Assembly: GCA_039917235.1 (NCBI GenBank)
Contig: JBDSJW010000481.1
Span: 1-39,884 of the forward strand
Length of the DNA stretch: 39,884 bases
Direction of reading: 5' to 3'
DNA from: Candidatus Kapaibacterium sp.
Lineage (GTDB): Bacteria > Bacteroidota > Ignavibacteria > OLB7
Numbering within the stretch: the first letter of the stretch is position 1; every line of letters begins with the position of its first letter. Shown here piece after piece: positions 6,465 through 19,593 of this stretch. The notes under the pieces are model-generated. The model was not told where the DNA came from and did no database searches. It saw nothing but the letters and a program-made list of their open reading frames with translations. A program made the position numbers and the translations under genes.

Positions 6465-6500
6465 GGTGGTAGGGGCGATTCGTGAATTGCCCCTACCACC
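6465..6500. terminator. 12-bp GC-rich hairpin between convergent genes (possible bidirectional terminator; no clear U-tract)
   Basis: GGTGGTAGGGGC (6465-6476), a 12-nt loop, then GCCCCTACCACC (6489-6500). It sits between the stop at 6447 (+) and the stop at 6493 (-), and the right arm overlaps the minus-strand stop codon. Confidence 0.4.
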
Positions 6501-8505
6501 TCGTACTCAGCGTGGCGCTTAACAGAAACTCGTTATAATTGCTCGTCGATACCACAAAGCTCCGATAGACATTCCGCTGCGCGCTTACCTCGAACACCCC
6601 GAAATCCCACAGTCCAACCGAACTGGTAATAAAGAATCCGACGTTATCATCGGTCCCTCCCTGCTTCGAAATGTTGAAGCCGGCCGTGTTGTTCCAGATA
6701 TCGAACGCGGTATATGATGCCCCGAGATCGACCGATAGAAGCGTGTTGGCGCTATCCCCCGCCGCCTGTAGCGATGACGATGTCACGCCGACGCTGAGCG
6801 ATAATGGGAACGCGAAGTTCACAAACTGATTGGCCCCGATCGTCGTGACGCCGTAATCGCTTATCCCCTGGTAGGAATTGCTGTTCTGCCGCGAAAAATT
6901 CACCGTGGTCCCGCCGTTAACCCCAAACACCTTGTAGTTATACCCCGCCGTGGCGGAGAGAAGCGATGTCGTGTTGTTGATATCGACCAGGTTGAGCGTG
7001 TCGGAGGCATCGCGATAGCGCTGCTCGTATGGGGAATATTGAAGGCGGAGATAGGGGTATTTCGAGAAGTTCAGCCCAAGCCCAACGCCGTACGAGAAGA
7101 TCGTCGTCTGCGAGGTCTTGAACGTCGGGAAGACATTGTCCATGTCACGCTTCACAAACACCGTCGCGGTGATCTGACGACGGAGGAATTTCTGCTCCAG
7201 GTTGGCATCCCAGCGGAGATTATCGTTTCTGAGCGATGGCACACCGAGTGAGAAATACGCCGGCCCAACCTTCCTGAGCGATGCCGTCAGCCGCGTATCG
7301 GTCTCCGGCAGCCTGATGATCGACCGCAACGCATACGCATAATCGACAACGCTGGAGATATTCGGGTCCACGGAGTTCCGCACAAAGTCCGGGATCTCGC
7401 TGCTCTGAAATCTCGCCGCCTCCTGATCCCCCGTCAGAAGCGATCCCGATCCCTCCGCCTGAAGGAGAAAATGATCCTCGAAGAGCGGAACATTGATATC
7501 CATCCCCAGAACGTAATTCGCTTTCGGCGTAACCGGCAGGCCGTTGCTGTCCAGCGGCAGCGAGCTTTTATCATCCTTCGCGTAGACGCCGGTGACGATG
7601 AAATGCCCGCCATCCTTCTTTCCATACCCGAGCCGGGCCGCGAAGAGCGTTCTGGTATATGATGGATTATTCAGCACCGTGTCGATCGACCCCGGCTGGA
7701 ATGAGCGCGGCAGAAGGATTGAGCGCTGCGTTTTTCCGGCCGCCGCCGCCACGTAGAACATGCCGGGATTCCACTCCACGTTCGCCCCGGTCACCGGAAC
7801 ATCGTTCAGCGTCAGGGGCGTATAATTCGGATAGGTGACGCCGACGGAGAGGGCGGGAAAATTGGCGAAGAACTTCTCCGATGCCGAGACCAGCCCAAGT
7901 TTGTCAAGCTGGCTCATGCTCTCGGAAAGCGCCTTGTCCTTGATCTTCTCGATATCGGCGTACTCCTTCAAATGATCAAGCTCGCGCAGCTTCTCCTCGC
8001 CGATACCCCCCAGCGAATCGCGCAGGCGCTCCACCCCGCCGGCCGCGTCCTGCAATCGCTTCAGCTCCTCGATCTCGCTCACCTTCTCGTAGGCGCGCTG
8101 AAGGATCTCCCCCTCCAGCTTGTGATAATCCAGATCGAAGCTGATGCTGTTCATGTTCTGGCGGTAGATGCTCTGCTCCGTGGAGAGGACAAGGTTAACC
8201 GTAAATGGGACATTGTAGAAGCTGAGCGTGGGGCTTAGTTCCATCCGCACGAAATCCGCTGGCGTCTCCTGATATGTCCCCTGCCGGTTCGCGGTCTGCG
8301 CGTACATCCTGGCGCTGCCGGAGAAGAGAAACGGCGATTGGGCCGGGGCTGGAACCGGCGTGGGGCTTACGGCGCTCCCTGAGTCAATCGGCGGAGCCGG
8401 CTGCGCGGATGCCCCGGCGGATGCAAACGCCGCGATCATCGAAACCAGCAACGATTGAAAAAGCACGCGCCGGTATCCGCCATTCGAAACAACCCTGACC
8501 GCCAT
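6493..8505 (-). CDS. Outer-membrane beta-barrel protein with an N-proximal coiled-coil segment (hypothetical)
   Basis: ATG at 8505 follows GGAAAGG and gives MAVRVVSNGGYRRVLFQSLLVSMIAAFASAGASAQP, a signal peptide. The charged heptad-like stretch LEGEILQRAYEKVSEIEELKRLQ...KIKDKALSESMSQLDKL is followed by ~450 aa of alternating amphipathic strands ending ...LSATLSTRW, an aromatic terminus. Confidence 0.75.
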   Translation of the reverse strand: MAVRVVSNGGYRRVLFQSLLVSMIAAFASAGASAQPAPPIDSGSAVSPTPVPAPAQSPFLFSGSARMYAQTANRQGTYQETPADFVRMELSPTLSFYNVPFTVNLVLSTEQSIYRQNMNSISFDLDYHKLEGEILQRAYEKVSEIEELKRLQDAAGGVERLRDSLGGIGEEKLRELDHLKEYADIEKIKDKALSESMSQLDKLGLVSASEKFFANFPALSVGVTYPNYTPLTLNDVPVTGANVEWNPGMFYVAAAAGKTQRSILLPRSFQPGSIDTVLNNPSYTRTLFAARLGYGKKDGGHFIVTGVYAKDDKSSLPLDSNGLPVTPKANYVLGMDINVPLFEDHFLLQAEGSGSLLTGDQEAARFQSSEIPDFVRNSVDPNISSVVDYAYALRSIIRLPETDTRLTASLRKVGPAYFSLGVPSLRNDNLRWDANLEQKFLRRQITATVFVKRDMDNVFPTFKTSQTTIFSYGVGLGLNFSKYPYLRLQYSPYEQRYRDASDTLNLVDINNTTSLLSATAGYNYKVFGVNGGTTVNFSRQNSNSYQGISDYGVTTIGANQFVNFAFPLSLSVGVTSSSLQAAGDSANTLLSVDLGASYTAFDIWNNTAGFNISKQGGTDDNVGFFITSSVGLWDFGVFEVSAQRNVYRSFVVSTSNYNEFLLSATLSTRW

Positions 8506-8592
8506 GAGCAAACACCTTTCCCAGCAGGGATATTGATTGATCTTGTTCAATGCATAACCGGAACGTTTCACCAGCGCCGGAGAAAGTTGTAC

Positions 8593-8619
8593 GGGGACGT
8601 TTGAAACGTCCCCCGACAT
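8593..8619. repeat. 27-nt palindromic REP-like unit, copy B
   Basis: GGGGACGTTTGAAACGTCCCCCGACAT matches 1208-1234 at 26 of 27 positions. It lies in the 138-nt gap between the 1450-aa gene stop (8644) and the barrel gene start (8505). Confidence 0.8.
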
Positions 8620-8643
8620 CCGACATCACACAACATCCACGCG

Positions 8644-18234: not shown

Positions 18235-18492
18235 GATAATTTCCGTCTGCTAGTAGAGATAAATTCGATTCGATCCGTCTCCAGCTACATCTGCTTCGTT
18301 AACCTGGGTTCCCGGCGGAACTGTGGGCTGGCGTGCAGCGATTCTCAGAGCGTATGATGTACAAGGCGCGTGACAATCTGCCCGGAAGGGGACCGGCCTT
18401 CCCGACGAAGGCCATTCGATAACAAACTTGTGAAGGCGTGGCGTCCATGGACCCATCGCATACCGCCGTGGCTATTTCCCCGATCCATCCCG

Positions 18493-19563
18493 CTACTGCC
18501 CATCGCACGAGTGGAGCAGCTCCTTCAGAATCGCCGGGGGAATTGTCGGCTTCAGGCCGACGATCAGCGAATCGATATTCCCGCGCACAATCCCGAAATC
18601 CGTCGCCTTCTCCGTCAGGCCGATAAGCGATACGCCGCGATCAAAGTTCTTCAGCATCGTGGGGGTCAGAATCTTCTTTCCATGAAATGCCGAATCGATA
18701 AAGACCCTGTTCTTCAACCCGCCGGACAACGGATCGAAATCAGTTCCGCCGTCGGCGTCCAGCTTCCGTGGCTGATAGGCAAACCACCAGATCTCGCTCT
18801 CACCAAGCGGGAAATCGCCATCGGACGCGCTCACCTTCCATGCGTATTTCCGCCCGGTCGTAAATGGGCGGGAGCTGATGGGAAACTGAAAAACCGTTGG
18901 CGTGATGGAAGGGCGGTCGAACCACGCCGGGTTGGACTGCATCGCATCAAACGGAGTCTGGCGGCCGACTATCTCCACGATCTTCAATCGATAGCGGATC
19001 TGCTGTCCGCGCTTCAGCGGCGACGGCGGCATCCAACTGAAGACCGGGAGCTTGTCCTCCACGATTGATTCATCAGACGGCGATATCAGCACCGGCGGCG
19101 TGGCCTGCTGAACCTCCGCGTTCTTGCAATCCCGGCCGATCACATCCCCATCGTTGCAATCGCGGCGCACCTCCACGCAGATCTCATACGATCCGGTCGG
19201 CGCGCTTCCGGTCCTTATAAAAACATCCTTATACTTGTTGTCAAAGTAGTGAGCATCGATCGGCTGGATCTCCGCGCCGGTAACCATATGGGTTCCGGGC
19301 GCAAGGACAAACCGCGTGGTCGTGGCCTCCACAAGAACCTTGTCCAGGTTCGTCTCGCGGAGACGACCGAACAGGCAGATCGTGATGGGGGCCTGGGTGT
19401 TGTTGACCAGACGGATACGCCAGAGATCGGCGATCTTCAACTGATTTGGAGGAGGCTGGAAGAGGGTGACCTGAACCTGGGACTGGGCGCGGAGGCCGGC
19501 GGGGATAATCGCTGCAAGCACGGCGAAGGCCGCAAGCAGGATAACGGTACGTGCTGATCTCAT
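18493..19563 (-). CDS. Secreted/periplasmic beta-sandwich-like protein (hypothetical), first gene of the cassette
   Basis: ATG at 19563 is preceded by GGGGGAAG and gives MRSARTVILLAAFAVLAAIIPAGLRAQS, a Sec signal. The track start at 19593 is a TTG inside a palindrome. The middle region PPVLISPSDESIVEDKLPVFSWMPP...YRLKIVEI...GRKYAWKVSA...SEIWWF looks like an Ig/FN3-like module. Confidence 0.85.
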   Translation of the reverse strand: MRSARTVILLAAFAVLAAIIPAGLRAQSQVQVTLFQPPPNQLKIADLWRIRLVNNTQAPITICLFGRLRETNLDKVLVEATTTRFVLAPGTHMVTGAEIQPIDAHYFDNKYKDVFIRTGSAPTGSYEICVEVRRDCNDGDVIGRDCKNAEVQQATPPVLISPSDESIVEDKLPVFSWMPPSPLKRGQQIRYRLKIVEIVGRQTPFDAMQSNPAWFDRPSITPTVFQFPISSRPFTTGRKYAWKVSASDGDFPLGESEIWWFAYQPRKLDADGGTDFDPLSGGLKNRVFIDSAFHGKKILTPTMLKNFDRGVSLIGLTEKATDFGIVRGNIDSLIVGLKPTIPPAILKELLHSCDGQ

Positions 19564-19578
19564 CACTTCCCCCAATGA

Positions 19579-19593
19579 TTGATACGTTATCAA
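19579..19593. promoter_or_regulatory. 6-3-6 palindrome TTGATAacgTATCAA (minus-strand reading) just upstream of the cassette's first gene; candidate operator
   Basis: The plus strand reads TTGATACGTTATCAA at 19579-19593. The arms TTGATA and TATCAA are exact inverted repeats, 16-30 nt upstream of the ATG at 19563. Confidence 0.25.

Follow-up and report, generated by a model that had tools for sequence, protein, structure and literature searches.

The window, by which we mean the whole stretch of DNA analysed here, comprises 39,884 nucleotides of a genome of Candidatus Kapaibacterium sp. (contig JBDSJW010000481.1, assembly GCA_039917235.1), and its minus strand carries a cassette of four co-directional open reading frames (ORFs), which we call g1, g2, g3 and g4. 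A first-pass annotation, made from the sequence alone, had reported these ORFs, and all four are present at their coordinates in the ORF list and in the translations. The first, g1 (18493-19563, minus strand), encodes 356 aa from an ATG at 19563, the ORF list giving 18493-19593 with a TTG start; g2 (13030-18234, minus strand) encodes protein A, the first partner of a giant pair, here in a long form of 1734 aa; g3 (8644-12996, minus strand) encodes protein B, the second partner, of 1450 aa; and g4 (6493-8505, minus strand) encodes 670 aa from an ATG at 8505, a start that agrees with that of homologue P0170 (670 aa, 94% identity), the ORF list giving 6493-8619. The closest relatives of g2, g3 and g4, at 90-94% identity, come from metagenome-assembled genomes (MAGs) of Chlorobi and Kapaibacteriota. 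The first-pass annotation had read the four genes as one candidate envelope system; our main finding is that g2 and g3 form a core pair shared by many phyla, which is joined here to a lineage-specific, predicted outer-membrane module consisting of g1 and g4.

A new pair of giant protein families

None of the four proteins matched Pfam, NCBIfam, PHROGs or PADLOC above noise, and no match was obtained among PDB sequences, whether the proteins were searched singly or with the g2, g3 and g4 family profiles; the earlier statement that the cassette holds no recognisable domain therefore held in each of these searches. Matches to TamB/AsmA-like proteins, Tc toxins or known adhesins, which the first-pass annotation had named as the outcome that would undo its claim of novelty, were looked for and none was found, and that objection does not arise because no characterised machine was matched. 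All homologues of g2, g3 and g4 are named "hypothetical protein" in their source records, and no account of the family turned up when the open-access literature was searched by organism, descriptor and conserved peptide motif. When weak Pfam matches were pooled at E<=5, 27 relatives of g2 yielded only compositional matches of apolipoprotein or coiled-coil type, confined to the helical region of g2, and no recurrent match was found in 31 relatives of g3. Proteins A and B represent two new, paired protein families that fall outside all families and systems tested. Their being paralogues of one another was considered and rejected at an hhalign probability of 0.1%. Among the invariant residues of the two families, Arg, Asp, Glu, Gly, Pro and Trp predominate. 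Both g2 and g3 are cysteine-poor, and conserved cysteine pairs were dropped as a possible sign of an extracytoplasmic location, cysteine conservation being too low to tell.

The linkage of the two families was assessed by running hidden Markov models (HMMs) of the g2 and g3 families against the six-frame ORFs of all fetched loci. A g2-family ORF lies directly upstream of a g3-family ORF on the same strand in about 70 of 88 loci, the rest being cut at a contig end, and the two ORFs usually abut or overlap. This pairing of A and B is strict and was seen across at least 12 phyla, and pairwise comparisons confirm the orthology of the downstream partner (E 4e-141 for Streptomyces and 2e-87 for Phototrophicus). 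Word-filtered searches returned 49 homologues of g2 and at least 427 of g3, and phmmer with g3 residues 241-1440 against 1.84 billion proteins returned 4252 representatives (at 50% identity) with E<=1e-3, of which 1983 had E<=1e-30. With one genome taken per GTDB species, a g3 relative is encoded in at least 577 of 185,579 species. The carriers include Kapaibacteriota, Chlorobiota, Rhodothermales, Balneolales, Acidobacteriota, Verrucomicrobiota, Myxococcota, Chloroflexota and candidate division WS1, together with Alpha-, Beta- and Gammaproteobacteria (Achromobacter, Bradyrhizobium, Phyllobacterium, Litoreibacter and Thiothrix), Actinomycetota (Streptomyces, Nocardia and Streptoalloteichus) and Paenibacillus alvei. 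The pair also resides on plasmids of the Bacillus cereus group, Rhizobium and Streptomyces and on a megaplasmid of Cupriavidus metallidurans CH34. On the Bacillus wiedmannii conjugative megaplasmid pBwiPL1-1 (locus L089, 15420-22155), three further large hypothetical genes come after the pair, on the other strand, and encode 450 aa, 1114 aa and, by record coordinates, about 1485 aa. The g3 family thus amounts to some 2,000-4,000 clusters at 50% identity in these at least 577 species, always coupled to a second giant gene, and it has stayed unlabelled despite confident AlphaFold models, with no convincing structural neighbour.

Clustering of flanking ORFs revealed no neighbour family recurring beside the A-B pair outside the Chlorobiota/Rhodothermales loci. 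The 114 immediate neighbours of the pair are functionally mixed and mostly metabolic or housekeeping genes by Pfam, a few being integrases, TIR proteins, RecD-like proteins or toxin-antitoxin genes. Because no neighbour recurs and the flanks are heterogeneous, the A-B pair can be regarded as a self-contained accessory unit, and it appears to be spreading horizontally. A defence-island setting was considered and rejected, as no PADLOC family matched more than one of the 114 immediate neighbours. A phage origin was likewise rejected, because tblastn of g3 found no match in 50,697 phage records and a single match in 2.9 million IMG/VR contigs; PHROG matches of the cassette proteins reached only E 0.08-0.3.

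The pair might act as a cytoplasmic anti-phage or abortive-infection system, in which B would sense infection and free the C-terminal module of A to perforate the cell's own membrane, the Tat (twin-arginine translocation) and outer-membrane version described below being derived. The sporadic, horizontal distribution (at least 577 of 185,579 species representatives), the carriage on plasmids and megaplasmids, the self-contained two-gene organization in varied contexts, the lack of a signal in either protein in most lineages and the few integrase, TIR, RecD-like and toxin-antitoxin neighbours are all in keeping with this. We nevertheless consider such a role unlikely, because g1-g4 have no PADLOC match at E<=1 (PADLOC-DB v2, systems to 2023), nothing among the 114 neighbours points to defence islands, the proteins lack nucleotide-binding, nuclease and protease domains and any other domain typical of sensors or effectors, and Tat export together with an outer-membrane partner would be odd for an intracellular sensor. 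Giant signal-less proteins encoded side by side, distributed sporadically and often plasmid-borne (as in Bacillus and Paenibacillus) also bring to mind the Tc (ABC) toxins, complexes that are thought to assemble before release. Unlike these toxins, g2 and g3 show no VRP1, TcA, SpvB, RHS/YD or MidN/MidC match (for the window proteins and for 27 + 31 family members at E<=5), no Tc structure appears in their Foldseek lists, the components number two and not three, and no lysis or release genes are linked to them.

Architecture of proteins A and B

The first-pass annotation had assigned g2 a twin-arginine leader. The motif is indeed there, but it does not stand at the very N-terminus, since an extension of 37 residues precedes it: the Tat-like segment, LSRRQLLGLSVSAGAALSIRTPAAKA/VA (the slash marking the putative cleavage point), spans residues 38-66 (18037-18123, minus strand), LSRRQLLGLSVSAGAALSIRTPAAKA itself being residues 38-64, and ahead of it residues 4-12 hold a conserved N-terminal motif, RLNIAALR. 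The segment is unusually far from the N-terminus of g2 and combines the features expected of a Tat substrate, namely the twin-arginine (RR) motif, a weakly hydrophobic h-region with Kyte-Doolittle values below 1.6, which is typical of Tat rather than Sec signals, and an AxA-like site, AKA/V. Export of g2 by the Tat pathway is putative on this basis; the 39.9-kb window itself contains no tat genes.

Comparison across the family distinguishes three forms of protein A. Long forms, found in the Chlorobiota/Kapaibacteriota-Rhodothermales group, Acidobacteriota, WS1 and a few others, consist of an RLNLxALR motif, about 25 variable residues, a (S/T/N)RRxxLG motif with a hydrophobic stretch, and an N-domain of about 400 residues; every one of the 12 non-redundant long forms carries (S/T/N)RRxxLG with a weakly hydrophobic stretch. 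Intermediate forms, from a Chloroflexota MAG (L021), Bradyrhizobium (L027) and an Actinomycetota MAG (L032), retain the N-terminal motif and the N-domain and lack the RR/hydrophobic segment as a clean deletion. Short forms, found in most Proteobacteria, Actinomycetota, Bacillota and Chloroflexota, begin at profile position ~440 and have no signal. Because the intermediates without the segment keep the flanking motif and the N-domain, the Tat-like segment is identified by these alignments as a lineage-specific insertion behind a conserved N-terminal motif, and a Tat leader is not a general trait of g2, the segment occurring in some lineages only. The A-B family can be considered basically signal-less, since the short forms of A and protein B carry no signal, and the signal gained in some lineages is of the type used by the pathway for folded proteins. 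Many short forms of Proteobacteria and Vicinamibacterales (L054, L068, L036; L022-L087) open with a strongly basic, K/R/A/P-rich tail that is 40-90 residues long and of low complexity; this tail stands in place of the N-domain and the Tat segment and might bind nucleic acid, polyphosphate or membrane.

As described in PMC10924467, the Tat pathway exports heterodimers in which one partner bears the signal and the signal-less partner is carried along. A and B resemble such hitchhiker heterodimers (hydrogenase small and large subunits, DmsAB) in that one partner bears the RR motif, the genes are adjacent and close, and the partners would, on the general principle set out there, fold and assemble before export. 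They differ in the size of the cargo (~190 + 160 kDa), in showing no cofactor-binding motifs and in the position of the RR motif, which lies about 37 residues in and is mostly absent from the family.

Behind the Tat-like segment, g2 comprises four parts. The N-domain (residues ~67-620; 16375-18036, minus strand), placed by a map of BLAST and HMM coordinates, occurs in long and intermediate forms only. The beta-rich core (residues ~730-1270; 14425-16047, minus strand) is the most conserved part of the family, with values of the predicted local distance difference test (pLDDT) mostly of 85-97, and has no specific Foldseek neighbour in PDB or BFVD. A bundle assigned five helices by DSSP (residues 1279-1386; 14077-14400, minus strand) follows, whose length varies in the family, P0036-P0049 having expansions of some 400 aa, and whose region gives weak apolipoprotein-like and ApoLp-III-like matches in several g2 members. 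The last part, also delimited by DSSP, is a glycine-rich beta domain (residues 1392-1700; 13135-14061, minus strand) that finishes with seven strands, 12-19 residues long, which are hydrophobic on one face and polar on the other, the mean 180-degree hydrophobic moment being 1.58 for these C-terminal strands versus 0.75 for the core strands. In the g2-like protein P0043, DUF346 repeats take the place of the front part and the C-terminal beta domain is kept.

An AlphaFold2 (AF2) model of g2 residues 725-1734, built from 50 sequences, reached a pLDDT of 81.5 and a predicted template modelling score (pTM) of 0.65. Its Foldseek neighbours in PDB are outer-membrane barrels, all weak (PelB at E 1.2e-3, LptD at E 0.009-0.14, porins, EspP and FhaC), the EspP match having a probability of 0.96 and a TMt of 0.41; lipid-binding sheets (MTP, lipovitellin and P47) appear as low-probability matches, and BFVD returned low-probability tail-fibre and porin matches, the best with E 1.7e-4, probability 0.44 and TM 0.10. 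The modelled C-terminal sheet of g2 looks like a membrane beta-barrel. With its very large N-terminal body, helical segment and C-terminal barrel-like domain, and with EspP and FhaC among its matches, g2 is reminiscent of type V autotransporters, and the conserved extension ahead of its signal core recalls the extended signal peptide region of large autotransporters. Unlike type V secretion, however, g2 carries a twin-arginine and not a Sec signal, has no Pfam autotransporter, POTRA or ShlB match and no aromatic beta-signal, and its C-terminal domain is kept in Gram-positives and in signal-less proteobacterial forms.

Protein B was described as lacking a leader, and this is borne out: its N-terminus is MASQKLLWTALPHG, and no Kyte-Doolittle window of 19 residues exceeds 1.6. 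Neither a signal peptide nor a lipobox was found in g3, and protein B has no signal in any lineage examined. The AF2 model of g3 residues 241-1440 (87 sequences; pLDDT 86, pTM 0.69) is almost all beta, apart from a small conserved helical sub-region near residues 657-688, and suggests a compact array of many beta-sandwich domains, a description of fold and not of family membership. Foldseek against PDB matched it to alpha2-macroglobulin, A2ML1, E. coli ECAM and complement C5 at E 3e-7 to 1e-5. The likeness concerns the domain class only, because the top eight matches have TM-scores of 0.06-0.10 and root-mean-square deviations of 37-52 Å; other high-probability matches are to ICAM and to the FnIII arrays of the insulin receptor, TM-scores overall being 0.06-0.14. 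Two g3 homologues carry additional domains, namely a Laminin_G_3 insertion in Phototrophicus (L004, 13436-18235) and a C-terminal FHA/YscD-type domain in P0129.

Members of the alpha2-macroglobulin/TEP superfamily (ECAM/YfhM, A2M, A2ML1 and C3/C5) share with g3 a length of 1400-1650 residues and a compact multi-beta-sandwich build. On this ground, g3 could be seen as a divergent bacterial alpha2-macroglobulin-type protease trap guarding the envelope, with g2 as its partner, its best Foldseek matches (A2ML1, alpha2-macroglobulin, ECAM and C5) being of similar size and of similarly compact domain arrangement. The global TM-scores of 0.06-0.10, which speak for a likeness of domain class only, together with the features of g3 itself, make this very improbable. 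None of its five cysteines (444 SLCRR, 831 DYCDA, 919 PLCKP, 1115 RRCGG and 1233 WFCDI) belongs to a CxEQ thioester motif, a large helical thioester domain is missing from the DSSP assignment of residues 241-1440, and signal peptide and lipobox are lacking, as is a Pfam A2M match, both for g3 at E<=1 and for 31 members at E<=5; nor did the g3 family profile match PDB at E<=10. Moreover, unlike alpha2-macroglobulins, g3 always stands beside g2, its constant partner, and not beside a penicillin-binding protein (PBP1c) or mag-operon genes.

The same beta-sandwiches, with the Foldseek matches to ICAM, insulin-receptor FnIII and alpha2-macroglobulin, would also suit a surface or extracellular structural complex of Ig/FN3-like domains (an adhesin, matrix or S-layer-like coat), released by a non-classical route and anchored here by g4 and g1. 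The Laminin_G_3 insertion in the Phototrophicus homologue, the DUF346 fusion in one A-like protein and the paucity of cysteines in A and B are consistent with such a complex, which we regard as improbable: most lineages show no Sec, Tat, sortase, LPXTG, SLH or type IX secretion system (T9SS) signals, the pTM values of 0.65-0.69 indicate compact bodies and not beads-on-a-string fibres, adhesin-typical repeats are absent, and full-length identities of 30-40% between phyla are unusual for surface adhesins.

The g1 and g4 module and possible roles of the cassette

The N-terminus of g1, MRSARTVILLAAFAVLAAIIPAGLRA/QS, is Sec-like, and the protein is predicted to consist of a Sec signal, two small beta-rich domains and a tail. 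It had been called a periplasmic beta-sandwich protein, a putative assignment whose basis is a sub-threshold match to the Ig domain PF25788 (E 0.004). As proposed earlier, g4 has a signal-like N-terminus (MAVRVV...AFASAGASA/QP) and a tryptophan at its end (...LSTRW), this terminal W being conserved in the g4 family. Between them lie a charged helical or coiled-coil stretch (residues ~127-205; window 7891-8127, minus strand), whose coiled-coil character derives from an E~1 likeness of profile positions ~115-195 to GCN4 and vimentin, and a Trp-terminated beta region of about 415 aa. With a weak match to the outer-membrane barrel family TIGR04565 (E 0.013), g4 is predicted from these sequence features to be an outer-membrane barrel. 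A signal peptide, a coiled-coil stretch, a long beta region and an aromatic end are also found in OmpM/SlpA-type proteins, and Deinococcus SlpA is among the weak Foldseek matches of g2; unlike those proteins, g4 lacks an SLH domain, gave no match in Pfam or PDB, and in Ignavibacteria carries g1-like domains fused to its N-terminus.

All 47 homologues of g4 come from Chlorobi, Ignavibacteria or Bacteroidetes, and g1 and g4 are limited to the group made up of Chlorobiota/Kapaibacteriota, Rhodothermales and Ignavibacteria. Homologues of g1, g2, g3 and g4 occur together in 9 of 9 loci of Chlorobiota/Kapaibacteriota and Rhodothermales/Balneolales, in the order g1-g2-g3-g4 in the former and g2-g3-g4-g1 in the latter, and the fact that the linkage persists while the gene order differs speaks for a functional connection of g1 and g4 with the pair. 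In Ignavibacteria, on the other hand, a g4-like barrel is fused N-terminally to g1-like domains and no g2 or g3 relative is present. In two ignavibacterial loci (L091, 4296-10963; L092, 2929-12601), several Sec-signal proteins of one operon share a g1-like N-terminal domain, QPPPxQ(L/F)...W..TL.N; among them are a 1620-aa protein, two proteins of roughly 100 aa and also the g4-like barrel. The g1-like domain looks like an undescribed docking domain shared by components of an outer-membrane platform. Because they are fused, and occur without g2 and g3, in Ignavibacteria, g1 and g4 are modular and make up a predicted outer-membrane platform in its own right, one that serves more than one kind of large partner and is recruited to the giant pair in the present lineage.

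These distributions bear directly on the proposal that the four genes make up one system. Their linkage holds in every one of the 9 loci of this lineage group, whereas elsewhere the pair occurs without g1 and g4. The cassette does not constitute a single indivisible envelope system, the pair being found alone, and with no export signal, in Streptomyces, Nocardia, Paenibacillus, Bacillus plasmids, Chloroflexota and Proteobacteria; nor are g1 and g4 inseparable from the giants, given that their fused form in Ignavibacteria serves other large proteins in the absence of g2 and g3. The locations put forward in the first-pass annotation (Tat for g2, Sec for g1 and the outer membrane for g4) are plausible, and an envelope-spanning system is partly supported, for this lineage only.

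One form that such a system could take is a bridge or conduit, in which an uncleaved RR segment would anchor A in the inner membrane, B would be held in the cytoplasm by the N-terminal peptide of A, and the body of A would reach g1 and g4. The RLNLxALR motif is conserved with or without the RR segment and is for that reason hard to explain as a mere part of a cleaved signal; in addition, B is signal-less in all lineages, one B homologue has a cytoplasmic-type FHA domain, the long-form A of this lineage group occurs together with g1 and g4, and no export of a 350-kDa complex would be needed. We regard the arrangement as rather unlikely, since the core pair has no membrane segment in most lineages, Gram-positives included, acidobacterial long forms have the RR segment and no g1 or g4, an AxA-like site (AKA/V) follows the hydrophobic stretch, and one B homologue contains the usually extracellular Laminin_G_3 domain. 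Any fold likeness to TamB, AsmA or Lpt bridges is confined to the weak LptD barrel matches: Pfam and NCBIfam gave no AsmA/DUF490 match, and TamB, YhdP and AsmA are absent from the Foldseek lists.

Our tentative best guess is that A and B form a cytoplasmically folded, membrane-active complex which, in this lineage, is sent through the Tat pathway and docked at g4 via g1. The two giant beta-rich proteins would fold and associate in the cytoplasm, as suggested by the fact that neither has an export signal in most lineages. The RR segment inserted into A would then hand folded A to the Tat pathway or anchor it by that route, with B carried along or held on the N-terminal peptide of A. At the outer membrane, g4 would be a barrel with a periplasmic coiled coil and g1 a periplasmic adaptor, and the platform of the two would dock or release the exported complex. 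The C-terminal module of A and its helical bundle may be the membrane-active element and B a scaffold or recognition body, the whole acting as a pore-forming device of antagonistic or protective function. We infer each of these steps, that is complex formation, Tat export, docking at g4, membrane insertion and biological role, and the pore-forming role is the weakest of them.

Several observations weigh against this membrane-active, exported complex. The barrel-like view of the C-terminal domain of g2 draws on weak Foldseek scores (E 1e-3 to 0.1, TM 0.2-0.4), the domain is also conserved in homologues from Gram-positive bacteria, which are without an outer membrane, and g2 ends in a non-aromatic C-terminus (...YCRAFA) after a short predicted helix. 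No obvious catalytic constellation is seen among the invariant residues of the g2 and g3 families, which show no invariant His/Cys/Ser pattern of the kind found in enzymes. A cargo of A plus B, at ~350 kDa, would be far above any Tat substrate known to us. Finally, the rare fusions give conflicting hints as to location, Laminin_G_3 being usually extracellular and FHA cytoplasmic.

In a bolder reading, the g2-g3 pair may define a hitherto unrecognised class of two-component bacterial machines across many phyla, in which a macroglobulin- or complement-like scaffold B and a protein A with a latent barrel-forming module would be assembled in the cytoplasm and attack or remodel a membrane, an export route of their own (the Tat insertion with barrel and adaptor) having been gained in Chlorobiota, Kapaibacteriota and Rhodothermales; we view this generalization as doubtful. 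The lineage offers a natural experiment, in which an outer-membrane partner and a Tat segment were gained by a signal-less giant. Should export be real, it would provide a test of Tat size limits and a new outer-membrane docking or secretion module, and if the pair turned out to be a known activity in disguise, a large annotation gap would still be filled. The function of A and B is directly testable because their carriers are culturable and in part genetically tractable, among them Cupriavidus metallidurans CH34, Achromobacter insolitus, strains with Bacillus cereus-group plasmids, Streptomyces and Bradyrhizobium.

Spacers and surroundings of the cassette

The gap of 33 nt between g2 and g3, with an AGGGAAG box ahead of g3, is present as described earlier. 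The g1-g2 spacer (18235-18492, minus strand; 258 nt) contains a short GGAAGG/CCTTCC hairpin near 18400, so that the hairpin placed by the first-pass annotation at 18395-18413 exists, with a stem of ~6 bp and not 7 bp. The spacer may house an internal promoter; a consensus scan found no sigma-70-like site in it, promoters of the Bacteroidota/Chlorobiota type lying outside the consensus of that scan. The palindrome noted earlier in the g3-g4 spacer, as a repetitive extragenic palindromic (REP) element, is perfect and 21 nt long (GGGGACGTTTGAAACGTCCCC, 8593-8613). A second copy lies at 1208-1228, the window total being two copies versus none expected by chance, which is why we regard it as a REP-like repeated element, and it looks like an intergenic repeat family of this genome. 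The palindrome has the form GGGGACGTTT[C/G]AAACGTCCCC, and both copies are situated just 3' of ORF ends, one that of a TonB-receptor fragment and the other that of g3. The copy in the g3-g4 spacer could serve as an RNA hairpin or processing site. Forty nucleotides past the g4 stop, the consensus scan found a terminator-like hairpin, CCCGAATTATTTCGGG, with a T-rich tail (6438-6453, minus strand), which is likely to mark the end of the operon.

The window is otherwise an ordinary-looking stretch of chromosome, with a TonB-receptor fragment, SNF2 and SWIM genes, an ECF sigma factor with a ChrR-like protein, AlkZ and SMC; it shows no break in GC content at the cassette and contains no tRNAs or Rfam matches. 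On the plus strand at 1775-5804, a 1050-aa SNF2-family helicase (DUF3670 + SNF2 + Helicase_C) overlaps at its 3' end with a 297-aa SWIM zinc-finger protein, and this gene pair is convergent with the end of the cassette. Close to the other side of the cassette, at 21298-22748 (plus strand), lie the genes of the ECF sigma factor and of its ChrR-like cupin anti-sigma factor, which directly adjoin the cassette in the related locus L001 (21693-23199) and do not in L007; they could be a regulator of the cassette or merely reflect local synteny. Further along, at 33582-38997, a 1334-aa protein with CHU_C-associated Ig_7 domains (plus strand) is encoded beside a 467-aa protein (minus strand) with ankyrin repeats, which are uncommon in free-living bacteria.

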